Source of the DNA: Synergistaceae bacterium
GTDB lineage: Bacteria; Synergistota; Synergistia; Synergistales; Synergistaceae
Length of the DNA stretch: 33,536 nucleotides
Reading direction: 5' to 3'
Assembly: GCA_031271065.1 (NCBI GenBank)
Contig: JAISWP010000042.1
Span: forward strand, 1-33,536
The notes under the pieces were generated by a model. The model ran no database searches. It saw only the letters and a list, made by a program, of their open reading frames with translations, and was not told the origin of the DNA. Shown here in pieces: positions 1,323 to 33,536 of this stretch (its first letter is position 1; the number at the start of each line of letters is the position of its first letter). The position numbers and the translations under genes are program-made.

Positions 1323-2269
1323 GCCGGAGACTCCCCGCTTTGTTCCAGTTTTATATTGATCTCCGGCCTGATGAAAAGGCCTTCCGCGGTTTCGTTTATC
1401 CGCCCGACCGACAGGATGGAATCGGTACTGACCGCCGCGATTCCGGGAGGGCACATGTGTCCGCAGGATATCCTGGAAATAGGATCCAAGGGCGCGTTCC
1501 GCCCGTTTGACAGGTGCGAAGCCAAGTCCCCGGAGACGGTATACACGGGTATGAAACGCCCTATGTCTCCTGCCGGCCGGATCATGGACTCGAGCGCGCA
1601 GGAAGCCGCGGATATATCTTCAGGCCACGAAAACGCGTCTTTGAGGGTGAAATGTCCGACCGCCTCCCGCCGCAGTGAAGCTATATGAGCGCCGCATCCG
1701 AGAATTCTGCCGAAATCCCTTGCTATCGCTCTCACATAGGCGCCCTTTCCGCAGCGTATGAGGAGTTCGACTTTTCCGTCCGATATGTCCGCGGTGCGGG
1801 TAATATATTCCACGAATACGGGACGGGGCCTGATTTCCGGGTTTTGGCCGAAGCGGAAGATTTCATGCGCGCGGCGGCCCTTTACATGAACTGCGGATAC
1901 CTCGGGCGGCAGCTGCATCCTCCATCCCAGGAAAGAGGGTATGCGGCCGTCTATGTCGGAGGCAGTCACGCCTTTGTAATCGGAGGTTTTAGTCACATCC
2001 CCGGAATAGTCCCATGTAGAGGTCTCCACCCCGAGCCGCAGGACTGCCCTGTAGGTTTTGGGCATCCGTATGACCAGGTCGGACAGACGGGTCGCGCCTC
2101 CAAAAAGCATGACCAGAACGCCGCTTGCCGTCGAATCCAGCGTTCCCCCGTGTCCCAGCTTGACGCCCTTTCCGATGATTTTTCTGAGCTGTTCAACACA
2201 ATAGGAGCTGCGGAGTCCGATGGGCTTATCTATCGCCAGAATACCCTGAAACATGACGTTCCATTTCAT
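1319..2269 (-). CDS. truB: tRNA pseudouridine(55) synthase
   Basis: GILAIDKPIGLRSS and GHGGTLDSTASGVLVMLFG (catalytic Asp in GTLD). Sits in the conserved position between nrnA and ribF. Start is ambiguous: ATG at 2269 or ATG at 2254 (MFQGIL...). Confidence 0.9.
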   Translation of the reverse strand: MKWNVMFQGILAIDKPIGLRSSYCVEQLRKIIGKGVKLGHGGTLDSTASGVLVMLFGGATRLSDLVIRMPKTYRAVLRLGVETSTWDYSGDVTKTSDYKGVTASDIDGRIPSFLGWRMQLPPEVSAVHVKGRRAHEIFRFGQNPEIRPRPVFVEYITRTADISDGKVELLIRCGKGAYVRAIARDFGRILGCGAHIASLRREAVGHFTLKDAFSWPEDISAASCALESMIRPAGDIGRFIPVYTVSGDLASHLSNGRNAPLDPISRISCGHMCPPGIAAVSTDSILSVGRINETAEGLFIRPEINIKLEQSGESPA

Positions 2270-3251
2270 CGCGAATCAAAGAGAGCGTTTCCTCGACCGA
2301 GGCCGCTATGGTACATCCGGAAGCGAGATCATGCCCGCCTCCGCCGAATTCAGCGGCGACCTCCCTCGCTTTGAAGGGAGGCCGCGATCTTATGGACACC
2401 CTCACTCCGGCGTCCGCCTCTCCGTCTTTCGGAGGAAATTCGCTGCAGAGCGCCGCCAGCTTCACCCCTTTTATCCTCATCAGGAAATTCACCAGATTCT
2501 CCGTCGCGCCCCGCGATGTCCCGGTCTCCAGAAAATCTTCCTTCGAAAGCCAGTATACCGCGCAGCGCGAATCCGCGAAAATTACTGTCCTCGTCATAGC
2601 CCGGCCCCACAGACTCAGCACGCCGGGGGACAGATTCGACTCCAGTTCTTCCGCCGCGAGGTTCGGCGAAACCCCAGCTTCGAGCAGTTTCATGGCGCAT
2701 CTGTGGCTGCGGAGCGTGGTGGAGGCGAAACTGAAACTTCCGTTATCCGAAATCATAGCCACATACAAGGCGGAAGCCTCGCCGCCCGTCAGCCCCCAGG
2801 GGGAAGACGACAGGAGCTCGGTGACCATTTCCCCCGTGGCGGACGCTTCCGGCTCTATCCAATTCAGGTCTCCGTAACGCTCGTTATCCGTATGGTGGTC
2901 TATGTTTATTATCGGGCACGTTCCCCGCAGTCCGGCGAGCCCCGGGAGGGAACGGGCCATAGTGCTCGTGTCCACGCAGATTATCACTCCGTCATGCCCG
3001 AAATTTTCCGGCATACGATCCAGCACCGCTAAATTCAAACCGTCCAGGAGAAATGAATATTTGTCAGGACACGGATCCATGCAGGCAAACAGAACATCCT
3101 TGGAAATACGCCCGCCTAGACGGGTGAGAGCGGCCCCGCACCCCAGCGTGTCTCCGTCCGGTTTCTCGTGGGATATGACAAGCCATTTATCTTTTTCCCG
3201 GAGGAGCTCCAGGACAGCTTCCCGCAAGCCGTTACGTTCTTCCCGCGCCAT
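2226..3251 (-). CDS. nrnA: DHH/DHHA1 phosphoesterase, NrnA-type nanoRNase/pAp phosphatase
   Basis: DHH motifs HEKPDGDTLGCG, INIDHHTDN, MISDNGSF and DHHA1 motif GGGGHDLASG. About 340 aa. Conserved position between rbfA and truB. Confidence 0.85.
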   Translation of the reverse strand: MAREERNGLREAVLELLREKDKWLVISHEKPDGDTLGCGAALTRLGGRISKDVLFACMDPCPDKYSFLLDGLNLAVLDRMPENFGHDGVIICVDTSTMARSLPGLAGLRGTCPIINIDHHTDNERYGDLNWIEPEASATGEMVTELLSSSPWGLTGGEASALYVAMISDNGSFSFASTTLRSHRCAMKLLEAGVSPNLAAEELESNLSPGVLSLWGRAMTRTVIFADSRCAVYWLSKEDFLETGTSRGATENLVNFLMRIKGVKLAALCSEFPPKDGEADAGVRVSIRSRPPFKAREVAAEFGGGGHDLASGCTIAASVEETLSLIRDEMERHVSGYSGDR

Positions 3252-6555: not shown

Positions 6556-7658
6556 AGCGATTCTCCCGTAGTCTTTTTGATATCGTTGAACAAATCCTGC
6601 AAAGTCGGCAGTCTCTCCGGCTCGATCACTTTGATGTCGATCTTCCAGCCGGTCAGACGGGCAGCCAGCCGCACGTTCTGTCCCGCCTTCCCGATCGCCA
6701 GCGACAGCTGATCCTGACGGACAAAGACCCTCAGCGAATGTTCCTGCTCCAGCACCGGCTCTATCTTGGCCGCTTTGGCCGGAGAGAGCGCGTTGCGAGC
6801 GAACTGCATCGGATCGTCGCTCCATATTATAACGTCGATTCTCTCTCCGCCCAGCTCGTCGCTTATCGATTTTATCCTGGTCCCGGCGGCGCCTACACAG
6901 GCCCCCACCGGGTCGACGTTCACGTCAAGGGATCGCACCGCGACCTTCGCCCGGGCGCCGGCTTCCCTCACTATCGATTTTATCTCGACAGTGCCCTCCG
7001 CGATCTCGGGGATTTCGAGTTCCATGAGGCGTTTCAGCAATCCCGGATGAGTCCGGGAGACAATTATGCGCGGCCCTCTCGTGGTCTTCCTGACATCCAG
7101 CAGAAGGAACTTCCTGCGTTCGCCGGGCGGATACGACTCTCCGCTCATCCTCTCTTCCTTGGGGAGCAGCGCGTCGGTCCTGTCGTTCACCTGCACCAGA
7201 ATCTGGTCGCCCTCCGCTTTGAATATCGTCCCCAATACCATATCGCCGATGTGATCGGCGAACTCGTTGAAGATGATCTGACGCTCGGCGTCCTTGAGAC
7301 GCTGAATTATCACCTGACGGGCGGTCTGCGCCGCTATGCGCCCGAAATTTTCCGGATTGACCTCCACGTATGCGAAGTCCCCCGGTTCGAGGCCGCCGTG
7401 TCCGTTGGCGCTCGCCTGTTCCGAAGTCCATTCCGCGTCCGGGACTGTGACTTCCTCCACGATATGATATTTCTCGGAAAGGGCTATTTCCCCGTTTGTG
7501 AGGTTTATATGGACCTCCACCACCTGATTCCCGTTCTTGTACTTTTTATATGCGGAAGCCATGGCGGCTTCCAGGCTCGAGGCTATTATTTCGATTGGAA
7601 GACCCTTTTCGGTCTCAATCTGCTTTAAAGCCTTGACAAAATCCTTTCCGAGCTGCAT
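6531..7658 (-). CDS. nusA: transcription termination/antitermination factor NusA
   Basis: NusA N-terminal domain, an S1 segment (GDMVLGTIFKAEGDQILVQV) and two KH segments (GACVGAAGTRIKSI; AIGKAGQNVRLAARLTGWKIDI). SD GGAGGG lies upstream of the ATG. Confidence 0.96.
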   Translation of the reverse strand: MQLGKDFVKALKQIETEKGLPIEIIASSLEAAMASAYKKYKNGNQVVEVHINLTNGEIALSEKYHIVEEVTVPDAEWTSEQASANGHGGLEPGDFAYVEVNPENFGRIAAQTARQVIIQRLKDAERQIIFNEFADHIGDMVLGTIFKAEGDQILVQVNDRTDALLPKEERMSGESYPPGERRKFLLLDVRKTTRGPRIIVSRTHPGLLKRLMELEIPEIAEGTVEIKSIVREAGARAKVAVRSLDVNVDPVGACVGAAGTRIKSISDELGGERIDVIIWSDDPMQFARNALSPAKAAKIEPVLEQEHSLRVFVRQDQLSLAIGKAGQNVRLAARLTGWKIDIKVIEPERLPTLQDLFNDIKKTTGESLWEDLPKD

Positions 7659-8162
7659 TTATTTCCCTCCCCGGGCTTTGTTTGCCTTTTTTACGCCCTT
7701 ATTTTCGATGTACGCCAAATTTCCTTTTTTTATACCGCCGAACGGCAAAGAGACGTCTCTGTCGTCCTGAGCTCTCATAACCACGACGCCTCCGTCGCAT
7801 GACATTATCTGTCCCGTGACCTTCTCTCCCGAGGCGAGAGATAAGGAAGCATATCGTCCGGCAAAACGCCTGTAATGCTCCTGCGTGTAAAGGGGACGCT
7901 CCAGGCCGGGCGAACTGACTTCCAGGAAATATTTCCCCGGGAAAAGGGTTTCCCCGCCGGAACTTTCTATCATATCCGACAGCGCGCGGGAAACCTTTTC
8001 GCAGTCTTCATGCCTCACCCCTCCGGGTGCGTCGATGTAAACTCTGACGACAGACCCGCGTCCCGAGCGGGCAATCTCCGTGCCGACACATTCGTACCCC
8101 AGATTTTCCGCCGTCTCGCAGACATTTTTTTTCAAGAACGCAAGAGCATTCCCGGAAATCAT
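7659..8162 (-). CDS. rimP: ribosome maturation factor RimP
   Basis: YFLEVSSPGLERPL signature. The track ORF starts at GTG 8222, but that 20-codon extension contains a perfect terminator hairpin. ATG 8160-8162 (MISGNALAFLKK...) has a GAGGA at 8174-8178 and matches the N-terminus of RimP homologues. Confidence 0.86.
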   Translation of the reverse strand: MISGNALAFLKKNVCETAENLGYECVGTEIARSGRGSVVRVYIDAPGGVRHEDCEKVSRALSDMIESSGGETLFPGKYFLEVSSPGLERPLYTQEHYRRFAGRYASLSLASGEKVTGQIMSCDGGVVVMRAQDDRDVSLPFGGIKKGNLAYIENKGVKKANKARGGK

Positions 8163-8189
8163 CAAATCACCGATCCTCGGCACCCGCCT

Positions 8190-8219
8190 AAAAAACAAAG
8201 AGTGGGAAAGCCCACTCTT
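8190..8219 (-). terminator. intrinsic-terminator-type hairpin in the rimP-nusA-infB leader (candidate attenuator)
   Basis: Minus-strand RNA reads AAGAGUGGG-cuuu-CCCACUCUU followed by UGUUUUUU. That is a 9-bp perfect stem (8198-8206/8211-8219), a 4-nt loop and a U-tract at 8190-8197. It lies between the predicted promoter and the rimP SD. Confidence 0.6.
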
Positions 8220-8246
8220 CACAAAGAAACCGTGCAGACATACATA

Positions 8247-8274
8247 ATTATAGCATCAATTGCCGAAAAGACAA
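8247..8274 (-). promoter_or_regulatory. sigma70-type promoter for the rimP-nusA-infB operon (extended -10)
   Basis: Minus strand reads TTGTCT (8269-8274), a 16-nt spacer, then TGcTATAAT (8247-8255). Confidence 0.45.
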
Positions 8275-8302
8275 TCAAAAATCTAAAATACCGACTTTTG
8301 TC

Positions 8303-8491
8303 CTATAGACACATATCCGCCACAAAGTTCGGCCACCAGTCGTCAAAACCTGAGGAAAAAGATTCCTCTATGCACGGGACGACGACGTCCGCGAACAAAA
8401 TATCGTCCTCCAGATCGGGCAGAAGCTCAATACAGCTGTACTGCACCATACGTTCCCGCTCAGATAAACCAAGTACCGCCATGAACTCCAC
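8303..8491 (-). CDS. hypothetical small acidic protein (59-62 aa)
   Basis: The only ORF in the 545-bp rimP-guaB spacer. Start is GTG 8489-8491 or ATG 8480-8482, preceded by GGAAGGGGGTGGAG. A perfect TATAAT lies on the same strand at 8514-8519. No family recognised, so coding status is unproven. Confidence 0.3.
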   Translation of the reverse strand: MEFMAVLGLSERERMVQYSCIELLPDLEDDILFADVVVPCIEESFSSGFDDWWPNFVADMCL

Positions 8492-8708
8492 CCCCTTCCG
8501 ACCCGGTCACGCAATTATAGTACAATAACGGGGAAAATAAAAGAAACCGGCGCAAAAAACGTGATCGTCACTGAAAAAATCATCTAGGCTCTCTGATTTC
8601 CACTGAGAAGCTGTATTAAATAACCGCTCAAAAACCGCCGGTACGCCTAGTATAGATTGAACGTCGGAGTATGGTCATAGGATATAACAGCATAATGAAC
8701 CACCGGCC

Positions 8709-8767: not shown

Positions 8768-10237
8768 TTATTCCACAGCGTAGTTCGGGGCTTCCTTGGT
8801 TATCACCACGTCGTGAGGATGCCCCTCCTTCATGGAAGCCGGAGTGATCTCGATGAATTTCGCGTTTCTGTGAAGCTGCTCCATGTTAGCGGCGCCTACA
8901 TACCCCATGCCCGAGCGAATGCCGCCGACCATCTGGAACACTATCCCGGAGAGAGAGCCTTTATGCGGGACCAGGCCCTCTATGCCCTCGGGGACGAGTT
9001 TATCCTCGGATGAACCCTCCTGGAAATACCTGTCCTTGCTTCCACCCTTCATGGCGCCCAGAGACCCCATGCCGCGATAGCTCTTGAAAGACCTCCCGTG
9101 ATATATGACCGCCTCTCCGGGGCTCTCCTCGGTACCGGCAAAGAGGGAACCTATCATGACGCTGTCGGCTCCGGCCGCGAGTGCCTTCACTATGTCCCCC
9201 GAATATCTTATTCCGCCGTCGGCGATCAGGGTGCAGCCTCTCTCGTGCACGGCGGGAGCCACTTCCATTATCGCGGCTACCTGGGGGACGCCTATGCCGG
9301 CGATCACCCTGGTGGTGCAGATCGACCCAGGCCCTATGCCCACCTTGACTCCGTCCACACCGGCGTCCATGAGGGCTGCGGCCGCTCCCTTCGTTGCGAT
9401 ATTGCCTCCGATGAGCTGCAGGTCCGGATATTTCCCGCGAACCGCTTTGATCGTAGACAGCACCGATTTCGAGTGTCCGTGGGCCGTGTCGACTATTATC
9501 ACGTCCACGCCGGCCTCCGCCAGCGCGTCGAGCCGGTCCATCGAATCCGCCCCGGTTCCTATCGCCGCCCCGACGCGGAGCCTTCCCTTCGCGTCCTTCG
9601 TGGCGTCCGGAAAATCTTTGGCCTTCTGTATATCCTTTATTGTGATGAGTCCCTTGAGCCGGCCGTCAGAATCCACTATCGGGAGTTTTTCGACTTTCCT
9701 GCTGGCAAGTATGTTCTTCGCGCTGTCGAGGTCCGTTCCTACAGGGGCTGTCACGATGTTTTCCTTCGTCATGACGTTGTCTATGGGCTGCTCGTAGTCG
9801 GTGATGAAACGAAGATCCCTGTTCGTGATGATGCCCACCAGTCTGAGGCTCTTATCGACTATGGGCACCCCCGATATATGGTAGTGGGCCATCAGTTCGA
9901 CCGCGCTCGAAACTTTGTCCTTCGGATACAGGTAAAACGGATCGACTATGACTCCGCTCTCGGATCGTTTTACTTTGTCCGCCTCCTCCACCTGGCGCTC
10001 TATCGTCATGTTGCGGTGAAGTATGCCTATGCCGCCTTCCCTGGCCAGGGCTATAGCCAGTCTGGCCTCTGTAACGGTATCCATAGCGGCGCTGCAGATC
10101 GGGGCGTGCAGCGATATGGCCCTGGTCAGATACGAGGATGTATCCACCTGGGACGGGAGCACCTCGCTGTAACCCGGCACCAGCAGAACGTCGTCGAAGG
10201 TAAAACCCTTGTAATTTTCAAATTTATTATTGTCCAC
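8768..10237 (-). CDS. guaB: IMP dehydrogenase
   Basis: FTFDDVLLVPGYSEV, a CBS pair, the catalytic loop GIGPGSICTTR, and GGIRYSGD. The track ORF starts at TTG 10285. GTG 10235-10237 (MDNNKFENYKGFTFDD...) is preceded by GGAGGAG (10244-10250) with a 6-nt spacer and gives a canonical N-terminus. Overlaps the gltX stop by 11 nt. Confidence 0.93.
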   Translation of the reverse strand: MDNNKFENYKGFTFDDVLLVPGYSEVLPSQVDTSSYLTRAISLHAPICSAAMDTVTEARLAIALAREGGIGILHRNMTIERQVEEADKVKRSESGVIVDPFYLYPKDKVSSAVELMAHYHISGVPIVDKSLRLVGIITNRDLRFITDYEQPIDNVMTKENIVTAPVGTDLDSAKNILASRKVEKLPIVDSDGRLKGLITIKDIQKAKDFPDATKDAKGRLRVGAAIGTGADSMDRLDALAEAGVDVIIVDTAHGHSKSVLSTIKAVRGKYPDLQLIGGNIATKGAAAALMDAGVDGVKVGIGPGSICTTRVIAGIGVPQVAAIMEVAPAVHERGCTLIADGGIRYSGDIVKALAAGADSVMIGSLFAGTEESPGEAVIYHGRSFKSYRGMGSLGAMKGGSKDRYFQEGSSEDKLVPEGIEGLVPHKGSLSGIVFQMVGGIRSGMGYVGAANMEQLHRNAKFIEITPASMKEGHPHDVVITKEAPNYAVE

Positions 10238-11630
10238 GGTTATCTCCTCCAGGCATCGCAGCGCGCCCATTTCTGTATTCGTCAAGGCGTTTTAATGTAT
10301 CGGTCCGTCCGATACATGACAGTATAAGGCTTATCGGCGCTCCGCGCGACATACCGGTCAAAAAAATTCTGAGCGGATGGAAAAAATCAGCGCCTTTCAA
10401 GCCTTTTTCTTTTTGAAATGATTTCATAATATTTTTGATGTTTGAGGAATCCCATTCGATATCCGGAATCAAGGTGAACCGCTCTTTTAAATCTTCAATC
10501 CATTCCGGGGCATCGGCCGTTTCACTGCCCGAAAGAGAGAGATTTGCCCTGATCTGAAAAGCCAGCTCCCTTTTTGTCGCGCATTCCGGCAGGACTTCCC
10601 GCAGAAAGGCGATTTTTTCGCTTTTCGCGACTCCGGAAGATCCGAACTCCGAAAACCCGTCACTGCAATAAGCGAGCAGAGTTTCGTCCGCAAGGCCGGA
10701 CAAAAACAGCCGGCCGAAATGCCTCATTCTGGCCTCGTCATGGACCGGGGCGAAGCGAGCCACGGAATTCAGGTCGAACATTCCGGCCAGCTCGCTCAAA
10801 GGAGCGATCCTGTCCGTCGGCGCCTGCGCCCAGCTCAGCGTCGCCAGATAAGAGACAACCGCTTCGGGCGCCCATCCCGATTCCCTGTACTCATCGATTG
10901 AGACCGCGCCGAGACGCTTGCTCAGCTTACGGCGCTCCCTGTCCAGTATCATCGGGATGTGAGCCCATTTCGGCGGAGACCACCCCATCGCCCTGTATAT
11001 CATCTCCTGTTTGGGGACGTTCGGCATGTGCTCCTCGCCCCTGATGACGTGCGTGACGCCCGAATCGTGATCGTCCGCGGCGCAGGCCAGAAGATATGTC
11101 GCCGAACCGTCTCCCCGGGCTACCGCGAAATCCTCCGCGGCACATCCGGGAACTGATATCTTTCCCCGCAGTATGTCGAAATAGGTATAATTCGGGGATG
11201 CCGGGACTTCGAACCTCCAGCAGTGAGGGTCTTTTCGCGAAATTCTGGACTTACGCTCCCCGGGGTTCATGCTTCTGCAGCTGTGTCCGCCCTTACTGAA
11301 CTCCTCAGAGCTCGAGCAGAAACAGGGATAAACCGCGCCGCGCTCTATGAGGAAGTTCAGCACCTCTTTGTGTCGTTCCGAGCGGGAGGACTGCCTGGGA
11401 GACAGAACGTCCGGCACGATCCCCAGCCACTTCAGATCTTCCAATATGCTTTTTTCGTACAGTATGTCGGAACGAGATCTGTCGGTGTCCTCAAAACGGA
11501 GCATGAAAGAACCCTGTTCTCTCCGCGCCCACAGATAGTTGAAAAGCGCCGTGTGAGCCCCCCCTATGTGAAGGGAGCCGGTCGGCGACGGAGCAAACCT
11601 GGTTACGACCCTGCCGTCACTTTCCGCCAA
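10227..11630 (-). CDS. gltX: glutamate--tRNA ligase
   Basis: RFAPSPTGSLHIGGAHTALFNY (HIGH motif) and KLSKR (KMSKS motif). 467 aa. TTG start with GGGAGAG 9 nt upstream. Confidence 0.92.
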   Translation of the reverse strand: MAESDGRVVTRFAPSPTGSLHIGGAHTALFNYLWARREQGSFMLRFEDTDRSRSDILYEKSILEDLKWLGIVPDVLSPRQSSRSERHKEVLNFLIERGAVYPCFCSSSEEFSKGGHSCRSMNPGERKSRISRKDPHCWRFEVPASPNYTYFDILRGKISVPGCAAEDFAVARGDGSATYLLACAADDHDSGVTHVIRGEEHMPNVPKQEMIYRAMGWSPPKWAHIPMILDRERRKLSKRLGAVSIDEYRESGWAPEAVVSYLATLSWAQAPTDRIAPLSELAGMFDLNSVARFAPVHDEARMRHFGRLFLSGLADETLLAYCSDGFSEFGSSGVAKSEKIAFLREVLPECATKRELAFQIRANLSLSGSETADAPEWIEDLKERFTLIPDIEWDSSNIKNIMKSFQKEKGLKGADFFHPLRIFLTGMSRGAPISLILSCIGRTDTLKRLDEYRNGRAAMPGGDNRGQ

Positions 11631-12360
11631 CGCCGTCCACTCTCCCGATTACCTCTATCCTGGCCGGCGCGACGCCCTTATTTTTGATCCCCAGAAGATC
11701 GGCCGCGGCATGTGATATGTCCAGCACTCTGTTTTTCGTCTCCCTGAAACGGTCGGTCACCCTTACCACCGCGAATTTGCCGGAAGGCGCCGTCACCTTG
11801 ACGAGCGTCCCGAAGGGCAGGGATTTCGCCGCGGCCGTCAGATGAGTTTCCGTGAAGCGTTCTCCGTTCGCGAACTTCCTGCCTACAAATTTTCCGCCGT
11901 ACCATGATACCGAAGCGGATAAGTCATATCTGCCCCTTATCTGATATGCCGGTGTGAGATCCGCCGCGTGCCGCTCACCGAGAGCTCCGTAAAGACGGGA
12001 CATTATCTGTAAAGCTATGCTTTTCTGATCCTGCTTCGTAGATCTGGCGTATTCAGGATCCACCGAATAAATCGGGGTTTTGCCTATAAAGAGCGTCCAT
12101 CTGCCGTTTGCCTTGTCCACACGCAGATCTTTCAGCTGGAATCCAATTTTGTATAACCTGTTGAACATTTCCGACAGCTTGGACACGTCCTTCGCGTTTG
12201 CCGCAGGAAATTTCCAGACCGGTTTTCCCTCCGCATACCACACGACATAATTTCCATCCCCTGTGTAATAGGACGAAGGCGCCGCATACAGCTCCGGCGC
12301 GTAAAAGAAGATGACTGCCAGCACACATGCGGCGGCGTATTTTTTAATGACACTGATCAT
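11617..12360 (-). CDS. exported RlpA-family (double-psi beta-barrel) lytic transglycosylase-like protein
   Basis: C-terminal DPBB signature: SWYGGKFVGRKFANGERFTETHLTAAAKSLPFGTLVKVT...AVVRVTDR. N-terminal signal peptide MISVIKKYAAACVLAVIFFYAPELYA. Start chosen at ATG 12358-12360, with AGGAAG 8 nt upstream; the track starts at 12396. Confidence 0.8.
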   Translation of the reverse strand: MISVIKKYAAACVLAVIFFYAPELYAAPSSYYTGDGNYVVWYAEGKPVWKFPAANAKDVSKLSEMFNRLYKIGFQLKDLRVDKANGRWTLFIGKTPIYSVDPEYARSTKQDQKSIALQIMSRLYGALGERHAADLTPAYQIRGRYDLSASVSWYGGKFVGRKFANGERFTETHLTAAAKSLPFGTLVKVTAPSGKFAVVRVTDRFRETKNRVLDISHAAADLLGIKNKGVAPARIEVIGRVDGVGGK

Positions 12361-25043: not shown

Positions 25044-25970
25044 CTAAACAAAAAATGATATAAATTGGCCGGGCATCGGCGATTTTATCGTGAGTCCCTC
25101 TATACCTGGCAGCGACGAGTCGTCCGGAAAGGAGAGGGAGTAAGCGTGAAGCATGGGGCGTGGAAATGAGCGCGCGTGCCGCTCGAAGCCGTACTTCTCG
25201 TCCCCGGCTATGGGAAATCCCAGCAGGGCAAGATGCGCCCTCGCCTGATGCGGGCGGCCGGTGACCAGTTCTATCTCCGCCAGGGAATAAGGGGATTTGA
25301 AGCGTATTCTGCGGAAAAGCGTAAGTGAATCCATGCCGGAATCCCCCGGGCGGGCCGCGCAGACGATATTGCGCCGCCCGTCCTTGACAAGAGGGATGTC
25401 TATCCTGCCCGTTTCAGGTATTTTCCCGTATACGACAGCCCTGTATATTTTTTTGACCGCTCCATTGCGCATATGTTCCGAAATGGCCCGCAGCGCCGGG
25501 TAAGTCAGGGCAATCGCGGTGACTCCCGACACGTTGCGGTCGAGCCGTCCGGTCACCGCCGGCCTGAAGTCGTCCCTTTTCCAGCCGAGCATATGCCACG
25601 CCCTTGTTATTACGGAATCACCTCCCGGTTCGTCCGGCTGGGCCAAAAGACCCGGAGGCTTGTCGACGCACCAGAGGAATTCGTTCCTGAAAAGGGTTGA
25701 GAGAGTGAGGTCCCCTCCGGCGTTTTCTTCATCATTATTATCGGAAATAATGCCCCGGGCGTCCCGCGTCCAGGGCACGGCCACCTCGTCTCCGGCGGAC
25801 AGGCGGAAATCGCCGCTTGCTTTGCGGCCGTTCACCCGCACGGAACCGTTTCGGATCGACTTCATCACCGCCCCGAGGGGGACGTCCCTGAAAAGCCCTC
25901 TCAGTACGCGGTCGAGGCGCCTGTCCGCCTGGTCCCCAGTGGCTCTGAAGCTATATCTTTCATTGATCAT
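25044..25970 (-). CDS. RluA-family 23S rRNA pseudouridine synthase with N-terminal S4 domain
   Basis: S4-like RLDRVLRGLF...SIRNGSVRVNGRK. Catalytic motif TGRLDRNVSGVTAIAL. C-terminal GRPHQARAHLALLGFPIAGDEKYG. Confidence 0.85.
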   Translation of the reverse strand: MINERYSFRATGDQADRRLDRVLRGLFRDVPLGAVMKSIRNGSVRVNGRKASGDFRLSAGDEVAVPWTRDARGIISDNNDEENAGGDLTLSTLFRNEFLWCVDKPPGLLAQPDEPGGDSVITRAWHMLGWKRDDFRPAVTGRLDRNVSGVTAIALTYPALRAISEHMRNGAVKKIYRAVVYGKIPETGRIDIPLVKDGRRNIVCAARPGDSGMDSLTLFRRIRFKSPYSLAEIELVTGRPHQARAHLALLGFPIAGDEKYGFERHARSFPRPMLHAYSLSFPDDSSLPGIEGLTIKSPMPGQFISFFV

Positions 25971-27009
25971 CGGCGGCGGCCCCGCCCGGCTTCCAGAAAC
26001 GCCTCCCTGCCGCGTGATGGAAAGCGGAAATGCTCTGTCCGGCGGGCATTTCCGCGGTGGCGTCCTTCCAGCAGAATATCTTGAAATCGAGTTCGTCCGA
26101 CGAGGCGACTATGAGGGCTTCCGGCGTCGCCGGCAATACCGGCGAGCCGAATTCCTTGTGTCCGTGATGACTCAGCAATATGTGCCCTATGTGAATGGCT
26201 GTCTGGGACGGCAGTTTCGCCTCCCCGGCCAGCCTTGCGAACTGCGCGTATCCGATGGCTATGTGGTCCAGCACTGCGCCCTCCAGCGTGATCTCAGGAA
26301 CCGGCGACATGGAGTAAGACGCCGCTTTCCCTATATCGTGGAGCAGAGCGCCGGCGATGACTATCGACACGTCTATGTCCGGATAAGCGTTTTTGTAGTG
26401 CGCCGCGAGGGAACGGGCCGCTTCTGTGAGGGTCACGGAGTGTTCGAGCAAGCCGTGGGCATAGGCGTGGTGATTCGTCACGGCAGCCGGAGATTCCTTG
26501 TAGGCTTTGCCTATCGGCTCTTCGAATACGAATTTCAGGAAATCGCGGATCACGGGACTGCAGGCTTCTATCAGAGCCTCCAGCCGTGACTCCAGCACGG
26601 AAAGAGGCACATCCGAGTGAGAAATAAGGTCGCATACGGGATATTTCTCCTGGTCGAGCAGGGAGAGCGCGTTGAAATTATACTGGACCTGTCCCCTGTA
26701 ATCGACAGTCTTGCCGGTTATTCCCAGAACCAGCCCTCTCAGCTCGTTTATCTTTGACTCGGAAAGAGGGGCCGGGCGAGCCGACAATTCCGGGTCGGAA
26801 CGGTCCCACCATGCCGCGTCCGACCATATCTTGGCCGCGAGCGCGCCGCGCTGGTCGGAAACGATTATATCCCAGTACGGTTTCCCGTTTTTATCAGTTT
26901 TTCTCTGCAGCGAGTTCACTGCAAAAATACCTTTGAACGTCTCTCCCGAGGCTAACTGCCGGACATCGGACGTCTTGAGCAGCTTTGCGGCAGGCTGCTG
27001 CGGCATCAT
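25960..27009 (-). CDS. yhaM: OB-fold + HD-domain 3'-5' exoribonuclease, YhaM family
   Basis: N-terminal OB segment (KNGKPYWDIIVSDQRGALAAKIW...YRGQVQ). HD domain (TNHHAYAHGLLEHS, ALLHDIGKA, ILLSHHGHKEFGSP). Collinear with B. subtilis YhaM as I recall it. Start is ATG 27009 or 27006, after GAGGGTGG; the track starts at 27024. Confidence 0.75.
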   Translation of the reverse strand: MMPQQPAAKLLKTSDVRQLASGETFKGIFAVNSLQRKTDKNGKPYWDIIVSDQRGALAAKIWSDAAWWDRSDPELSARPAPLSESKINELRGLVLGITGKTVDYRGQVQYNFNALSLLDQEKYPVCDLISHSDVPLSVLESRLEALIEACSPVIRDFLKFVFEEPIGKAYKESPAAVTNHHAYAHGLLEHSVTLTEAARSLAAHYKNAYPDIDVSIVIAGALLHDIGKAASYSMSPVPEITLEGAVLDHIAIGYAQFARLAGEAKLPSQTAIHIGHILLSHHGHKEFGSPVLPATPEALIVASSDELDFKIFCWKDATAEMPAGQSISAFHHAAGRRFWKPGGAAADDQ

Positions 27010-27089
27010 CGACCACCCTCTCATTAATGACTCAGGTTATTTTAGCATGACCGAACGCGCTGCTGCTGCGTAAAAAATCATGAGATGGA

Positions 27090-27223: not shown

Positions 27224-29119
27224 ATGCCCCTATACAAGGGACCTGATAATAAAACGCTGGATATAAAGGGAGATACCACTCCTTTCGATCTGTTCAAAGA
27301 GATGGAGATCAAGGGCGCGGTGGCGGCAAAGATCGATGGGCGGGCCATAGACCTGCACTCGGCGCTTAGGGACGGCGGAATTTTGGAGCCGATAACGTCT
27401 GACAGCGGGGAAGGGCTCGAGATAATCAGGCATTCCGCCTCACACCTCATGGCTCAGGCTATAACTAAGCTGTATCCCGGAGCGAAATTCGGCGTCGGAC
27501 CCGCAATAGCCGACGGGTTTTATTACGACGTCCTGTTTCCGAAGGCGGTCACCGAAGAGGATCTGCCGGTCATAGAGGCCGAGATGAAGCGTCTTTCTGC
27601 CGAAAAGATCCGCATAGAGCGCGTGGAGATGAGTTCGGATGAGGCGCTTGGGAAGTTCACCGAAGACCCCTTCAAGACCGAGCTCATAAAGGAAATAGGA
27701 TCGCCCTCCGTCTCCCTGTACGGGCAGGACGGATTCTGGGATCTATGCCGCGGGCCGCACGTGCCCAATACAGGCTATGTAAAGCACTTCAGGCTCATGT
27801 CGCTGGCCGGGGCCTACTGGAGAGGCGATGAGAAGAACGTCATGCTGACGCGGGTGTACGGGACCGCTTTCGCCGACGCCGAATCGCTCGGCGAATACCT
27901 GAAGATGATGGAGGAAGCCAAGCGAAGGGATCACAGAAAACTAGGGAGAGAATTGGACCTGTTCAGTTTTCAGCCGGAGGGACCGGGGTTCCCGTTCTTC
28001 CATCCGAAGGGTATGGTCCTGATGAACAGCCTCGTGGATTTCTGGCGGAAGGAGCACATCAGGCGAGGGTACAGCGAGATAAAGACCCCTCTGATCCTGG
28101 ATCGGGAACTGTGGCGGAGGTCGGGACACTGGGATCACTACCGGGACAACATGTACTTCACCGAAATCGACGAGCGCCCTTACGCTATAAAGCCGATGAA
28201 CTGCCCGGGAGGCATCCTCGTATACAAGACGTCGCGCAGGAGTTACCGCGAACTGCCGCTGCGCATGGCGGAGATGGGCACCGTCCATCGCCATGAGCGC
28301 TCCGGCGTGCTGCACGGGCTCATGAGGGTCAGGTGTTTCACCCAGGACGACGCCCACATATACTGCAGCCCCGACCAGATCGGCGATGAACTCAAAGGGG
28401 TCATCGATCTCGACAAGTACATCTACGACGTATTCGGTTTCCAGTTCGGCGTCGAACTGTCCACCCGTCCGGATAACTTCATGGGAGACCCGGCGCTGTG
28501 GGAAAACGCCGAGCGAAGGCTCCAGGATATATTGGAGGAGACCGAGACACCGTACAAAATCAACCCGGGCGCCGGCGCCTTTTACGGGCCCACGATAGAT
28601 TTTCACCTGAAAGACAGCATCGGAAGGACCTGGCAGTGCGGCACGGTTCAATTGGATTTCCAGATGCCGGAAAAATTCGACATGACGTACATAGGCAGCG
28701 ACGGCGCGGAGCACAGGCCGGTCATGCTCCACAGGACGGTGCTAGGCAGCCTGGAACGCTTTATCGGGATACTGATAGAGCACTATGCGGGAGCGTTCCC
28801 GTACTGGATAGCGCCGGTACAGGTGAAGATAATACAGGTCAAACCGGAATTCGAAGAGTACGCCCTGAAACTGGGGGAGATATTGAAGGAGATGAACGTC
28901 CGTTTCGAACGCGACGCGCGGGACGAGAAACTCGGCAGAAAGATACGCGACGCCCAGCTGGAAAAGACCCCCTACATGCGGATAGCCGGCGCCAGAGAAG
29001 CTGAATTCAACTCCGTATCAGTGCGCACGCGCGCGGGCGGCGACATAGGTTCGCGCAGCATAGACGAACTGAAGGCCATGCTCGCGTCGGAGTTTGTGCC
29101 CGAAGCGCTGAAATTGTAA
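27224..29119 (+). CDS. thrS: threonine--tRNA ligase
   Basis: N-terminal TGS segment, an editing/second additional domain, and a class II core (HRHERSGVLHGLMRVRCFTQDDAHIY, GAFYGP). C-terminal anticodon-binding domain. GGGAGGAG lies 8 nt upstream of the ATG. Confidence 0.96.
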   Translation: MPLYKGPDNKTLDIKGDTTPFDLFKEMEIKGAVAAKIDGRAIDLHSALRDGGILEPITSDSGEGLEIIRHSASHLMAQAITKLYPGAKFGVGPAIADGFYYDVLFPKAVTEEDLPVIEAEMKRLSAEKIRIERVEMSSDEALGKFTEDPFKTELIKEIGSPSVSLYGQDGFWDLCRGPHVPNTGYVKHFRLMSLAGAYWRGDEKNVMLTRVYGTAFADAESLGEYLKMMEEAKRRDHRKLGRELDLFSFQPEGPGFPFFHPKGMVLMNSLVDFWRKEHIRRGYSEIKTPLILDRELWRRSGHWDHYRDNMYFTEIDERPYAIKPMNCPGGILVYKTSRRSYRELPLRMAEMGTVHRHERSGVLHGLMRVRCFTQDDAHIYCSPDQIGDELKGVIDLDKYIYDVFGFQFGVELSTRPDNFMGDPALWENAERRLQDILEETETPYKINPGAGAFYGPTIDFHLKDSIGRTWQCGTVQLDFQMPEKFDMTYIGSDGAEHRPVMLHRTVLGSLERFIGILIEHYAGAFPYWIAPVQVKIIQVKPEFEEYALKLGEILKEMNVRFERDARDEKLGRKIRDAQLEKTPYMRIAGAREAEFNSVSVRTRAGGDIGSRSIDELKAMLASEFVPEALKL

Positions 29120-29267: not shown

Positions 29268-31187
29268 TTACCGGACGACGAACGCGGATTCAAATATCTC
29301 ACGGTCGATTATGCCGTGTTCACCGGGCGAATACTGCATCAGCCAATCTCCCCTCTTCCCGAAGAGAACTCCCCTCTGTCCGGAAAGGGATACGCAGAAG
29401 GGGCAGTCCATCCGCAGCGCCAGCCCGGGCAGCTCTTTTTTCATGTAAAAACCGTCGTCTCCATATTCAGTTCCATCGCAGGGCGAGTAGGTCTCGAAAA
29501 ACTTTTCCCGCTGTACCGGCCACGGCTCCTCCTGTGTGCCGGATATCAGCGCGTCTTTCTCCTCGAAGGAAACGTCTCCTTCCAGCGTCCTAACGACTCC
29601 CGGTTTATGCGCGAATCTCACGGAAACGGGGATATTTTTCTTCACTGCGCGGACCGCGTCGGCGCGCTTTGAAAGGTCCTCGTCAGTACAGTCAAGTATG
29701 TAGATTTTGTCGAACACGTCCCCCGCAATGACGTAGTAATCATCGGCGGAACGGGAAACCAGCCAGTCGCCGGGGTCGCCCCTCAGGTAATTTTCGGGGT
29801 CCCACCTGGTGAATACCTTGACGCGGCCGCCGAGCCGGGCCGCTTCCACTCTGCCCCCCTCATGCCCCACGCATATATGGGCGCGGCTTATTATGGATAT
29901 CCTCTCGCCCGTGTTTTTGTTGAGCACTGTCGGATTGTACATCAAGTCCGGCGTGAACTTCTCCCCTGTCACGGTATAAGCGGCGATGAATTTTTCCAGC
30001 TCTATCGGGTAAACTTCGCCCTTCACGCCGATCATCAGGATCGTCTCCTCATCGGCGGTTATGTCCATATCCCCCTCGAGCATCCGAATCCTCAGATCGG
30101 CATTCCCTTCAAACAGCATGTGACAGGGTACGAATCCTACCCTGACCGGCAGTTTCCTGAAGGTTTTCATGTCCCCGGCGCATAATTCCGCCCTTGTATC
30201 GCCGTCGAGGACCGCGCAGTCCACCACCTTGAAGCCTGTCACGTAATCTCTGACGGAGTTCGTGATATAGTCGAATATACCCATGTCTCCAAAACACTCG
30301 GCGAACCTGCCGAGCGCTATGCGCCCTCCGGCCTTTTCCCGGTGCCCGCCTCCCGAACCTATGCCGCGCGCCAGCCAGGAAGCCAGCTCCGAGGCGTGGA
30401 AGTCCCTGACCGCCGTGCGCACCGAGTATTTGATCCCATCCATGGACGGAGTATAGGCGACGGCCGCATCCACGCCGTCCACCTGCATAGCCATGTCGAT
30501 GATGAAACCCAGCAGGTTCGGGTCGCATGGAGGCGCGGATATCACCACGAATCCGAGTCCGGCGTCGCGATAGAGGCCGGACAGCGCGGCGGACGCGACT
30601 CCGATGTCGGCGAAGGACAGGTTCGAGCGTTTCAGTCTCTTGAGCAGATCCTTATCCGTTTCCAGAGAATCCCACATGTCCCTGTCCAGAGGGTGCATGA
30701 CCTCGGAAAAACCGTTGGTGTCTGAGAAAAGTCCATAGTGCAGAGCCGTGCCCAGCCGAGTGTCTATGGGAAAGGACTCCTGAACCAGCATGTGCCAGAC
30801 CAGAGTAGAACAGCTGCCGAGCCAGGGACGGAGTTCATGGTCGAAAGGAAGTTCACCCTCCTGGATATGATGGTCTATGACGGCGACGCGGGATGCGTCC
30901 ACCCGTGTGACGTTGCCGGCCCCGTGCTGACAGTCCACACTGATTAGAAGGCCGTCCCATTTTTTTATGTCTCGGTCGTTTTGGGCGGGGATGCCGAGCC
31001 TGTCGATCATGCGTATAAGATTCGGTTTTGTGATGGCGGCGCCGCCGTAAAAGAATCTGACTTCTTCCAGGCCCCTGGACTCGAAAAAACAAAACAGCCC
31101 GAAACCGGAGGCCAGCGCGTCGGCGTCCGGATTATCGTGACACTGTATCGCTATACGGCGTTCGTCAGAAAAATCGCTGAGTCTCAT
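29268..31187 (-). CDS. DHH/DHHA1 phosphoesterase with a ~300-aa C-terminal array of four related modules
   Basis: HDNPDADALASG, VAVIDHH, GLFSDTNGF, GSGGGHREKAGG. Four repeat units follow (see findings). GGTGGAG lies 5 nt upstream of the ATG. Confidence 0.85.
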   Translation of the reverse strand: MRLSDFSDERRIAIQCHDNPDADALASGFGLFCFFESRGLEEVRFFYGGAAITKPNLIRMIDRLGIPAQNDRDIKKWDGLLISVDCQHGAGNVTRVDASRVAVIDHHIQEGELPFDHELRPWLGSCSTLVWHMLVQESFPIDTRLGTALHYGLFSDTNGFSEVMHPLDRDMWDSLETDKDLLKRLKRSNLSFADIGVASAALSGLYRDAGLGFVVISAPPCDPNLLGFIIDMAMQVDGVDAAVAYTPSMDGIKYSVRTAVRDFHASELASWLARGIGSGGGHREKAGGRIALGRFAECFGDMGIFDYITNSVRDYVTGFKVVDCAVLDGDTRAELCAGDMKTFRKLPVRVGFVPCHMLFEGNADLRIRMLEGDMDITADEETILMIGVKGEVYPIELEKFIAAYTVTGEKFTPDLMYNPTVLNKNTGERISIISRAHICVGHEGGRVEAARLGGRVKVFTRWDPENYLRGDPGDWLVSRSADDYYVIAGDVFDKIYILDCTDEDLSKRADAVRAVKKNIPVSVRFAHKPGVVRTLEGDVSFEEKDALISGTQEEPWPVQREKFFETYSPCDGTEYGDDGFYMKKELPGLALRMDCPFCVSLSGQRGVLFGKRGDWLMQYSPGEHGIIDREIFESAFVVR

Positions 31188-31206
31188 CGATACTCCACCT
31201 TACTTT

Positions 31207-31215: not shown

Positions 31216-31280
31216 CAAAAACCAAGGCCGTTCCTCGTGCGCTGTGATAATAATGAAGAAAATAAATTATGACTATCGGC

Positions 31281-32045
31281 TTAAATTATGTTTATACCCC
31301 TCAGCGTAATATATTCGCGGTAGTCGGGGGGGAAATCGTCGTCGACGATGAAGCAGCCGATTACATCCATAGGCGTCATGCTGAAAAAGGCCGTTTTGTT
31401 GATCTTGCTCGAATCGGTAACGACGTAGTTTTTATCCGATACGGAGAGCATAGCGGCGTTCAATTCCACTTCCTCCAGGACGGGGTGCATGATTCCGCGT
31501 TTTTTGCAGAGGGCTGAGATACCGAAAAAGCACTTGTCTATAGAGAATGACTTTATAAAGTCGAGGGAGCCCGGCCCGACGACCATCCCGGAACTGCTGC
31601 GCACCCTGCCTCCCGGTATATATACGGTGGCTTTCGGCAGAAGGAGCGCCTTTGCCGCGACGTTCACATTCAGCGTTATTATATGCACGGACTTGTCGCC
31701 GATGTAGTCGATGATATATTCCACGGTGCTGCCGGAGTTGAGCCCTATCATATCGCCGTCCTCTATGAGCTCTGAGGCCTTCCGCGCTATTATCTGCTTC
31801 GCCTCGTAGTTCTCGCTCCGCTTCGCGGAAACGGCGAGCTCCTTCACAGCCTGCGTTCCGTTCGAGTCCCTTATATGCGCGCCGCCATAGACTATTTCTA
31901 TGTCCCAGCCGCGGGCGAGTTCTTTGAGATCCCGGCGGATCGTCTCGTCTCTCACGCCGTATTTCCGGGCGAGTTCCCCGACAGTCACGGAACCTCTGCC
32001 AAAAAGCGTGTTCAATATCTCTTTGCGTCGATCCACATTAAGCAA
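31281..32045 (-). CDS. DeoR/GlpR-family transcriptional regulator
   Basis: HTH RRKEILNTLFGRGSVTVGELARKYGVRDETIRRDLKELA, plus a DeoR C-terminal sugar-phosphate-binding-type domain (IGLNSGSTV..., VVTDSSK). The track ORF (to 32105) overlaps the upstream gene. TTG 32043-32045 (or GTG 32034-36) gives the usual N-terminus and leaves a 16-nt gap. Confidence 0.85.
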   Translation of the reverse strand: MLNVDRRKEILNTLFGRGSVTVGELARKYGVRDETIRRDLKELARGWDIEIVYGGAHIRDSNGTQAVKELAVSAKRSENYEAKQIIARKASELIEDGDMIGLNSGSTVEYIIDYIGDKSVHIITLNVNVAAKALLLPKATVYIPGGRVRSSSGMVVGPGSLDFIKSFSIDKCFFGISALCKKRGIMHPVLEEVELNAAMLSVSDKNYVVTDSSKINKTAFFSMTPMDVIGCFIVDDDFPPDYREYITLRGINII

Positions 32046-32061
32046 CTTGGAGTACCCCCGC

Positions 32062-33195
32062 TCAAACCAGCAGATCCCAGAAATACGCGAGTTTGCCGGC
32101 CCCATAGCCGATACGCCTCAGCTCGCTGTAGGCAAAAGGCTCGCAGATCACGAGCTGGTCGTACGGCGTAAAAGTTATCTCTTTTAGCGCCGCGCCGCGG
32201 ATCTTGTCCAGGATATCCCTGTCAGTGTGACGGTTTACATACTCCGAGGAAATAGGGCTCTCCCAGACGCCGACTCCGTTCAGCCTTCTGTCTGCGTCGT
32301 AAAGGGGCCTGAATTCCGGCGCGTTCGGAATGGGGATCTCGCGCGTGTTCCGGGACAATGCCTCGATGCGCCGTGACTTCCCGAGAAATCTTGTGTAGAA
32401 ACTTCCCCCGTAGATGTGGGCTCTCTGCGTCTCAATGCCGGAGGCGGCGTCGAGCACGTCCGTCACGTCAAAGCCGCGCTGTATGCCGAGATCGTCCGCG
32501 AGAACGGTCAGACAGTATGCCGCCTGACCGGAGACAGTGACCACTCTTTCCGCTCCCTGCGAAGCGAGTTCTTCTATGAGCGAACGGAGGCGATCCGCGC
32601 CCTCGCCGGCGAATCCGTGGGCCATGAGCGCGAACCCCGTCCCCGACGTCAGCCACCCTCGCAGGGATATGCCTTTGCGTCTCAGGAACCCGCCGAGTTT
32701 TTGAGGGGAGGTGCCGGTATACTCGAAGCTCGCGTCATCGACAAAGAGGAAGCAATCCGCTCCTCTTTCGATTTTTATCGCGTCGTCCCAGAGATCGCGC
32801 CTGTCCGGGCTTTTCGGGATCTCCAGCTCCTCCGCCGATTTCACGCGTGAAAAACCGCTTTTGACGAATAATTCCCTGGCCAGGATCATACAGTGCAGGA
32901 AGTCGTTTCTTTCCTCGCCGAAGTTCTGCCACCGCTCCCCCTGTCCGGAGAGTATCGACGTGAAAATTATCTCCGCCCCTCGTTCCGAAGGTTCCAGCCC
33001 GCCTCGCAGCACAGCCAGCGCGATTTGCGCCGCCCGCGACGGGTAGAGGCTCGTCAGCCGCGTCGCAAGGTACTCGGGGTTATAGCAGACGCCCTGGTCC
33101 ATGTGGATTGCCTGTTTTTTGAGTTTTTCAGCGTATTTTTCGCATCCGAACGAAAAATTTTCCCGTGTCCCTTTTGCCGGAATTCCAGCGTTCAT
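32062..33195 (-). CDS. GlcF/LutA-like (CCG-domain architecture) protein lacking the Fe-S cysteines
   Basis: Collinear by eye with GlcF-type subunits (FLFVDDASFEY..., TSGTGFALMAHG, ERVVTVSGQAAYCL, HIYGGSFYTRFLGK, LVICEPFAYSEL). It has only 6 Cys and no CxxCxxCxxxCP or CCG motif. Its ATG forms an ATGA overlap with the upstream oxidase stop. Confidence 0.6.
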   Translation of the reverse strand: MNAGIPAKGTRENFSFGCEKYAEKLKKQAIHMDQGVCYNPEYLATRLTSLYPSRAAQIALAVLRGGLEPSERGAEIIFTSILSGQGERWQNFGEERNDFLHCMILARELFVKSGFSRVKSAEELEIPKSPDRRDLWDDAIKIERGADCFLFVDDASFEYTGTSPQKLGGFLRRKGISLRGWLTSGTGFALMAHGFAGEGADRLRSLIEELASQGAERVVTVSGQAAYCLTVLADDLGIQRGFDVTDVLDAASGIETQRAHIYGGSFYTRFLGKSRRIEALSRNTREIPIPNAPEFRPLYDADRRLNGVGVWESPISSEYVNRHTDRDILDKIRGAALKEITFTPYDQLVICEPFAYSELRRIGYGAGKLAYFWDLLV

Positions 33196-33536
33196 AGTCC
33201 CAGGACTCCTTTGTTGAGTATTCCCTTCGGGTCCAGCGCGTCCTTGATTCTTTTCATAACCCCGACCCCGACCCCTCCGTGTTCAAGCGTCATGAACTCC
33301 GCTTTGGCCGTCCCTACGCCGTGATGGTGCGAGACGTTGCCGCCGTTTTTCACGCTCGTCTCGCAGGCCGCGCGGAGACATTCCAGGTAACGCTTTTCGC
33401 CCTCCCTGTCGTCTCCCCCCGTCGCGGCGTGGAATATCACGTAGACGCTCGCCCCGCTGTGGTAGACGTGCGAAAAGTGGCAGTCGACGACATCGCACAG
33501 GGGTTCGAGCGCGGCGCGCATCTCGCGCCAGACCGT
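33192..33536 (-). CDS. FAD-linked oxidase (GlcD / D-lactate dehydrogenase family), C-terminal fragment; the gene continues past the right edge
   Basis: GGNVSHHHGVGTAKAEF...MKRIKDALDPKGILNKG is the conserved C-terminal signature of FAD_oxidase_C proteins. The reading frame is open to the window edge. Confidence 0.85.
   Translation of the reverse strand, partial: TVWREMRAALEPLCDVVDCHFSHVYHSGASVYVIFHAATGGDDREGEKRYLECLRAACETSVKNGGNVSHHHGVGTAKAEFMTLEHGGVGVGVMKRIKDALDPKGILNKGVLGL

Follow-up and report, generated by a model that had tools for sequence, protein, structure and literature searches.

A DHH/DHHA1 phosphoesterase with two tandem PGDYG domains and the association of its family with TIR genes

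Introduction

What does a nucleotide phosphoesterase do with two copies of a domain of unknown function at its C-terminus, and with which other proteins does it work? The question is raised by a gene of a Synergistaceae bacterium (assembly GCA_031271065.1, contig JAISWP010000042.1, positions 1 to 33,536; this stretch of 33,536 nucleotides (nt) is referred to as the window). The gene is a complete open reading frame (ORF; 29268..31187, minus strand) that encodes 639 amino acids (aa) followed by a stop codon, and its product joins a DHH/DHHA1 phosphoesterase core to two tandem PGDYG domains (Pfam PF14083). A first reading of this DNA, made from the letters alone (the sequence-only reading), described an accessory phosphoesterase with four PGDYG-like modules. 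Here we report that about half of the related genes examined, in several phyla, lie beside genes for TIR proteins, a coupling of the DHH-PGDYG family that appears to be undescribed so far. The DHH-PGDYG gene is probably part of an undescribed bacterial immune or signalling pair with TIR.

Association with TIR genes

The association was apparent in the first five DHH-PGDYG gene contexts, three of which have a TIR gene directly downstream. An iterated TIR search over all ORFs identified a TIR ORF at 36 of 80 species-level DHH-PGDYG loci, and at 29 of 58 when only loci with full flanks are counted. In 28 cases the TIR gene is directly downstream on the same strand, at distances from overlap to 160 nt; the DHH gene comes first in this arrangement, and the TIR gene often overlaps or abuts it (-22, -3 or 0 nt). 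Placement directly upstream was found twice, both times in Synergistaceae relatives (L011, where the protein is 68% identical to that of the window, and L014). The remaining TIR genes are convergent (6) or divergent (3), so every relative orientation occurs. Two TIR genes are present at L017, L023 and L027, which can be compared with Thoeris loci, where several thsB genes are carried. Loci with TIR genes span Synergistaceae, Desulfovibrionaceae, Betaproteobacteria and many Clostridia, and those with TIR are dispersed across the DHH tree.

The TIR partners are either fusions of TIR to beta-propeller or tetratricopeptide (TPR) repeats, or short TIR proteins. Among the 52 downstream ORFs that are 250 aa or longer, Pfam identified TIR_2 in 26, ThsB_TIR in 21, beta-propeller families in 14 and glutaminyl-tRNA synthetase (GlnRS) in 16. 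Of 40 partner TIR domains, all from related loci rather than from the window, at least 90% retain the catalytic glutamate of the motif WCxKEIE. No third recurrent gene was identified at the DHH-TIR loci, and the other neighbours are miscellaneous. ORFs of about 305-318 aa located between the DHH and TIR genes at L005, L013 and L018 were considered as a third component and were rejected, as they are mutually unrelated.

In Lachnospiraceae, the DHH gene is followed directly by glnS at 17 loci, and by a TIR gene and then glnS at 14. Also present, upstream of the DHH gene at 10 Lachnospiraceae loci, is purH. The DHH gene of these bacteria precedes glnS with or without TIR; of the two genes, TIR is the variable one.

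Two of the loci have additional features. L005 encodes a 1314-aa CHAT-TPR protein (1862-5806) upstream of a two-module DHH-PGDYG gene, and downstream a 304-aa ORF without a Pfam match that is followed by a 1007-aa TIR-TPR protein (8988-12011). At L013, unlike L005 with its CHAT-TPR gene, the upstream side of the DHH-PGDYG gene is overlapped by a gene for a leucine-rich repeat protein.

The phosphoesterase core

The catalytic core comprises residues 1-295 (30303..31187, minus strand). Pfam places both domains above their cut-offs, DHH at residues 11-137 (E-value 3.9e-10; 40.5 bits, cut-off 28.1) and DHHA1 at residues 221-292 (E 5e-6; 27.3 bits, cut-off 25.9). The sequence-only reading had claimed the full DHH motif set, and every string that it quoted was located where it had been placed, including HDNPDADALASG at residue 17, VAVIDHH at 101, GLFSDTNGF at 152 and GSGGGHREKAGG at 277. 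In 46 homologues, drawn from several phyla, the residues that do not vary are Q15, C16, H17, P20, D21 and D23 of motif I, D85 of motif II, D105, H106 and H107 of motif III, D156 and T157 of motif IV, and G280, G281 and H282 of the GGGH motif. Also invariant in this set is the DHHA1 strand motif K253-x-S255-x-R257, which may be compared with the arginine-rich motif of NrnA-type enzymes. Judged by this intact active site, the 639-aa protein is predicted to be an active NrnA-type DHH/DHHA1 phosphodiesterase.

The family profile matches solved chains of the NrnA/Rv2837c (CnpB), 4ls9, TmPDE and Pde2 types (E 2e-14 to 5e-6). These best solved matches have the same two-domain core, with motifs I-IV and GGGH. 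The matches are confined to profile positions up to about 300, and sequence and profile searches of the PDB returned nothing outside the DHH part of the protein. Compared with the NrnA-type enzymes, the window protein adds a 340-residue C-terminal extension that is seen in no solved DHH protein, and its family is linked to TIR genes.

A second DHH gene is present in the window (ORF 2226..3251, 341 aa). It encodes a canonical NrnA-like protein (E 8e-31 to TmPDE) that is only about 24% identical to the DHH-PGDYG protein. Given this gene and the intact catalytic residues, the DHH-PGDYG protein is an intact accessory paralogue, as had been suggested from the sequence.

Two other identities were discarded. 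A pyrophosphatase of the DHHA2 type is rejected because the NCBIfam pyrophosphatase models reach 25 bits against a cut-off of 283, and the protein has DHHA1 with GGGH instead. The label 'phosphoglycolate phosphatase' given to homologues by the Joint Genome Institute (JGI) has no support from Pfam or NCBIfam.

Distribution of the family

A search with the full-length protein returned 2,190 hits, whose source labels are generic ('DHH family phosphoesterase'). The homologues occur in two forms: a two-module form of about 640 aa, and a one-module form of about 500 aa that ends after module A (residues 1-496 of the window protein). The closest are Synergistaceae proteins from metagenome-assembled genomes (62-65% identity). 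A scan of 185,579 species genomes, one per species, identified at least 557 confirmed relatives. The architecture is not rare; it is that of a large, catalogued family without functional study.

PADLOC-DB 2.0.0 contains no match to the protein at E <=0.1, and no relevant paper was found in the literature searched on PGDYG/PF14083, on DHH or DHHA1 with TIR, or on Thoeris with phosphoesterase. A preprint on Metis (10.1101/2025.11.05.686725) was set aside, as it concerns phosphatases that are unrelated to the DHH-TIR pair. Since PADLOC has no model for it, the protein may be new as a defence protein.

The C-terminal PGDYG domains

Between the core and the C-terminal part is a linker (residues 296-339; 30171..30302, minus strand) that is little conserved, and residues 321-340 have a lower predicted local distance difference test (pLDDT) score (72) in the AlphaFold model. 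The C-terminal half is PGDYG-like, as had been proposed in the sequence-only reading: the Pfam model scores 77.3 bits against the whole protein, in two stretches (cut-off 27). Four tandem modules had been proposed. Four related units are indeed present, and they form two PGDYG domains of two units each, so the 'quadruplicated' module is a genuine internal repeat that consists of two copies of an already duplicated domain.

Module A comprises an N-type unit 1 (residues 340-404; 29976..30170) and a C-type unit 2 (residues 405-498; 29694..29975), the latter with a two-strand insertion and GDWLV at residue 473. It is followed by an inter-module linker (residues 499-514; 29646..29693), about where the shorter homologues end. 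Module B comprises an N-type unit 3 (residues 515-567; 29487..29645) and a C-type unit 4 (residues 568-639; 29271..29486), with GDWLM at residue 613; all are on the minus strand. Unit 4 is the core of Pfam PGDYG and alone scores 46.2 bits, compared with 65.4 bits for module B. Module A alone is under the cut-off (19.6 bits), and unit 2 has a partial match of 19.7 bits. The 102-position Pfam model covers residues 542-635, which correspond to the end of unit 3 and unit 4, or about 1.5 units.

Each unit had been described as ending in the signature aromatic-[PVI]-[IV]-x4-F-x3-[YF]. All four signatures were identified (starting at residues 392, 484, 555 and 624), and the leading aromatic residue is missing in unit 4. 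Other shared motifs are GDWL, at residues 473 and 613, and the related strings LPVRVGF at 346 and IPVSVRF at 519. The pattern [PVI][IV]x4Fx3[YF], which was picked after the sequence had been seen, occurs four times against 0.064 expected, and three or more times in 0 of 20,000 shuffles.

The repeat is visible to profile methods only, as plain self-BLAST of residues 296-639 gave no internal repeat. In profile-profile comparisons (hhalign) built on 55 full-length homologues, module A (residues 340-498) and module B (residues 515-639) are significantly related (E 5.7e-16, probability 98.6%), as are units of like type (unit 1 and unit 3, E 1.4e-10; unit 2 and unit 4, E 1.2e-10). Pairs of unlike type are not significant with these close homologues (E 0.004-0.06), although the register is constant. 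With 88 diverse stand-alone PGDYG proteins, however, the N-unit and C-unit match in register over 55 columns (E 7.6e-10); unit 1 matches their N-unit (E 9e-12) and unit 2 their C-unit (E 3e-14). Phage proteins of a single unit (61-68 aa) match unit 3 (E 6e-5 for that of Lactobacillus phage LfeInf), and a single region of a PHROG profile matches unit 2 as well as unit 3; the PHROGs families matched are of unknown function. Thus, all four units are homologous, and pairs of them make up the two PGDYG domains. By these comparisons, each PGDYG domain is an ancient duplication of a beta unit of about 60 residues. The single-unit phage ORFs are L089:2483-2689 (LfeInf) and L090:1340-1525 (Javan199), and the Javan199 copy adjoins an integrase gene.

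Confident AlphaFold models of residues 321-639 (pLDDT 93.9, predicted template-modelling score (pTM) 0.87) and of module B alone (pLDDT 95.1) agree with the repeat, in that one pattern is predicted four times: some six strands, or eight in the case of unit 2, precede a helix of 7 residues and a final strand. The pTM would fit a fixed, compact two-module assembly. In Foldseek searches of the PDB, neither the four-unit model nor module B had a relative of solved structure (best E 0.018 and 0.38, template-modelling score <=0.25), and an assignment to the SH3-like, OB or cupin folds is therefore unjustified. In viral models, Foldseek matched only uncharacterised phage proteins and entries named 'PGDYG protein'. 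Neither Foldseek against the PDB nor the family-profile search of solved chains identified an already characterised domain combination in this half of the protein. Strongly conserved residues of module A are R368, E371, D373, E391, Y417, K457, W462, Y467, D474, D483 and Y485. The repeats may be binding modules that govern activity or substrate choice, as was supposed in the sequence-only reading.

PGDYG domains in other proteins

A search with module B identified 548 cluster representatives. Most are stand-alone proteins of 130-170 aa that are 35-47% identical to module B, like PF14083 proteins of bacteria and phages. The DHH-PGDYG protein differs from these in having two tandem copies fused to an enzyme, with module A divergent and below the Pfam threshold. 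A long array occurs in P0122, a giant protein of 3743 aa with 19 separate stretches that match module B.

Fusion partners of PGDYG include Peptidase_M41, NUDIX, the RNA chaperone domain ProQ (ProQ/FinO) and an ABC ATPase. PGDYG is fused directly to TIR in P0235, and is joined to DUF4231, by a weak match, in P0181. Seven proteins (P0187, P0204, P0211, P0233, P0240, P0256 and P0259) have an N-terminal PGDYG and 2-4 predicted membrane helices. PADLOC gave no match to the PGDYG-membrane and M41-PGDYG proteins at E <=0.001. One PGDYG-membrane gene is 1.3 kb from a TIR gene. At L096 (155-2218 and 3704-8218), a PGDYG-membrane gene adjoins an island that encodes a cNMP-binding-TIR protein, a JAB peptidase, a ThiF-type E1 and a nucleotide cyclase; the island looks like a defence system of the Pycsar (pyrimidine cyclase system for antiphage resistance) or CBASS (cyclic oligonucleotide-based antiphage signalling system) type.

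Module B also changes carrier. In Desulfovibrio, it is an ORF of its own after DHH-module A (L018:7245-7955, L019:7700-8137 and L021:3214-3648), the result of a frameshift or of a true division of the gene. L021 has a second DHH-module A gene (7049..8605, minus strand). At L092, the C-terminal end of a module-A-bearing protein of the DHH family (3-290; only 95 residues before the contig ends) is followed directly by the gene for the PGDYG-TIR fusion P0235 (305-1687) and then by a SLOG/LOG-family gene (1733-2314; Pfam LDcluster4). Here module B has left the DHH protein for the N-terminal end of the TIR protein. Taken over these architectures, PGDYG is a mobile, sensor-like module that is joined to effector-type domains.

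Discussion

The DHH-PGDYG loci are like Thoeris (ThsA and ThsB) in that one conserved enzyme and candidate sensor protein is accompanied by a variable TIR complement of one or two genes, usually placed second. The partners match ThsB_TIR (21/52) with the catalytic glutamate kept. Unlike Thoeris, there is neither a SLOG or Macro sensor nor a SIR2 or membrane effector (Pfam identifies DHH, DHHA1 and PGDYG only), most partner TIR proteins are large beta-propeller or TPR fusions to which the PADLOC Thoeris models match weakly, and the window copy has no adjacent TIR gene. A second likeness is to the sensor fusions of CBASS, Pycsar and type III CRISPR (SAVED, CARF, STING and cNMP-binding domains), where one small domain is placed on many outputs. 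Those of PGDYG are TIR, membrane, M41 peptidase, NUDIX and DHH, and a one-module form exists beside the tandem two-module form; SAVED is itself a fused pair of CARF-like units. The differences are that the PGDYG fold has no detectable solved relative and that the generator would be a TIR protein, not a cyclase or Cas10.

Because of the TIR coupling and the mobile PGDYG fusions, the likely biology of the protein shifts from nucleotide housekeeping to TIR-centred conflict or signalling. The reading that we tentatively prefer is that the DHH-PGDYG protein is a receptor and hydrolase, the ThsA-like half of a Thoeris-like TIR pair, in which PGDYG receives a nucleotide made by TIR. The TIR partner would sense an invader and produce a nucleotide derived from nicotinamide adenine dinucleotide (NAD), the PGDYG modules would act as its receptor, and the bound ligand would switch on, or feed, the DHH/DHHA1 hydrolase. 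The analysis shows the intact active site, the repeat architecture, the TIR pairing across phyla and the fusions of PGDYG to effector-type domains; which ligand is bound, in which direction control runs and what the enzyme acts on in the cell are inferred. It is conceivable, if a little too much to expect in full, that PGDYG is an unrecognised receptor domain for TIR-derived immune nucleotides and that DHH-PGDYG with TIR-propeller or TIR-TPR proteins forms a new two-gene anti-phage system with the first DHH-type effector or signal hydrolase. Under this joint proposal the system would be common in gut Lachnospiraceae and found also in Synergistaceae, Desulfovibrionaceae and Betaproteobacteria, and the many stand-alone phage proteins with PGDYG would blunt the signalling as sponges or decoys.

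Several observations weigh against a receptor role in a TIR pair. About half of the family loci have no TIR gene, and the DHH protein is kept without TIR in Lachnospiraceae, as its place before glnS is the same either way. In the window, the immediate neighbours of the gene are a DeoR-family regulator gene and thrS, and the iterated search of all ORFs identified no TIR ORF of at least 90 aa anywhere in the 33.5 kb; the window gene is therefore an orphan copy. It may either work with a TIR gene encoded elsewhere or have a TIR-independent role. This retention of the gene without TIR, the window included, is the main weakness of every TIR-centred reading. In addition, the substrates of NrnA-type enzymes are small nucleotides, and acting on these is not obviously a way to kill a cell. 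We know of no precedent for a DHH effector in a known defence system, and the lack of a PADLOC model, noted above as a possible sign of novelty, also counts on this side.

An enzyme that clears a signal is a doubtful alternative, though one to be taken seriously. PGDYG would capture the TIR-made nucleotide and DHH/DHHA1 would hydrolyse it, in the manner of the ring nucleases of type III CRISPR, and the protein would serve as an off-switch or for self-protection where TIR is an NAD-consuming effector. The core belongs to a type that cleaves small nucleotides, and NUDIX, another hydrolase fused to PGDYG, belongs to enzymes that cleave nucleoside-diphosphate derivatives. The loci consist of TIR and DHH-PGDYG alone, and the gene order, DHH first with TIR often overlapping, is like that of an antidote followed by its toxin. 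However, other PGDYG fusions are to membrane or peptidase parts, which are unable to degrade a nucleotide, so PGDYG alone is not a substrate-delivery device; and genomes with no TIR gene next to it still retain the DHH enzyme. The fixed position upstream of glnS in Lachnospiraceae (17 loci without TIR, 14 with) and purH upstream at 10 loci would suit an enzyme that has nothing to do with TIR: a housekeeping paralogue that acts as a phosphodiesterase on nanoRNA, 3'-phosphoadenosine 5'-phosphate (pAp) or dinucleotides, in which PGDYG binds RNA or oligonucleotides and beside which TIR genes merely tend to insert. The absence of a TIR partner in the window, where the gene is found among thrS, a pseudouridine synthase gene and a gene for an HD-domain protein, and the PGDYG protein fused to ProQ/FinO are in keeping with such an enzyme. 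We nevertheless regard it as unlikely, since at least 557 confirmed matches from 185,579 scanned species genomes make too uneven a distribution for a core function, the window already has a canonical NrnA-like gene (2226..3251), TIR adjoins the DHH gene in all orientations in several phyla, a direct PGDYG-TIR fusion exists, and Foldseek finds no likeness to known RNA-binding folds.

The changes of carrier in the Desulfovibrio loci and at L092 would also be expected if PGDYG domains were adaptors, that is, mutually pairing protein-protein docking domains that tie DHH to TIR, with stand-alone phage PGDYG proteins as decoys that disrupt the pairing. In the AlphaFold model, the two modules form a single compact body, and stand-alone PGDYG proteins, those of phages included, are many. 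This is the least probable of the explanations considered: no PGDYG unit was detected (E <=0.01) in any TIR partner at the 80 loci, the TIR-propeller proteins that accompany one-module forms have no PGDYG, and the conserved charged and aromatic residues of module A look more like those of a ligand pocket.

If PGDYG does receive a TIR-made nucleotide, this would be the first functional context for a domain that occurs in many hundred protein families of bacteria and phages. DHH/DHHA1 would be a new output or processing enzyme in TIR-based bacterial immunity, and PGDYG proteins of phages a candidate class of counter-defence proteins. The two-gene operons in sequenced genomes of Desulfovibrionaceae (L016), Betaproteobacteria (L017) and Lachnospiraceae make the hypothesis directly testable. 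Were the TIR link incidental, these proteins would still be a large accessory family of NrnA type whose duplicated beta module is related to no solved structure.

Gene start and neighbouring genes in the window

The start codon of the DHH-PGDYG gene (ATG at 31187) is 93 nt past the stop of the DeoR-family regulator gene (31281..32105). A ribosome-binding site, AGGTGGAG, was read directly 5 nt before the ATG (31193..31200, minus strand). The 93-nt gap also contains a promoter-like site, TAGTCA-17-TATTAT (31247..31275, minus strand), which is a match to consensus only and is weak, as two such sites were found against 1.4 expected. The DeoR-family gene is overlapped at its start, by 44 nt, by a 377-aa ORF (32062..33195, minus strand) that has no match in Pfam or PADLOC and is next to an ORF at 33192..33521. 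Downstream of the DHH-PGDYG gene is thrS (27224..29119), in convergent orientation. Also encoded is a 354-aa HD-domain protein (25960..27024, minus strand; Pfam E 4e-12), directly upstream of the pseudouridine synthase gene (25044..25970); the HD-domain protein may resemble YhaM-type exoribonucleases.

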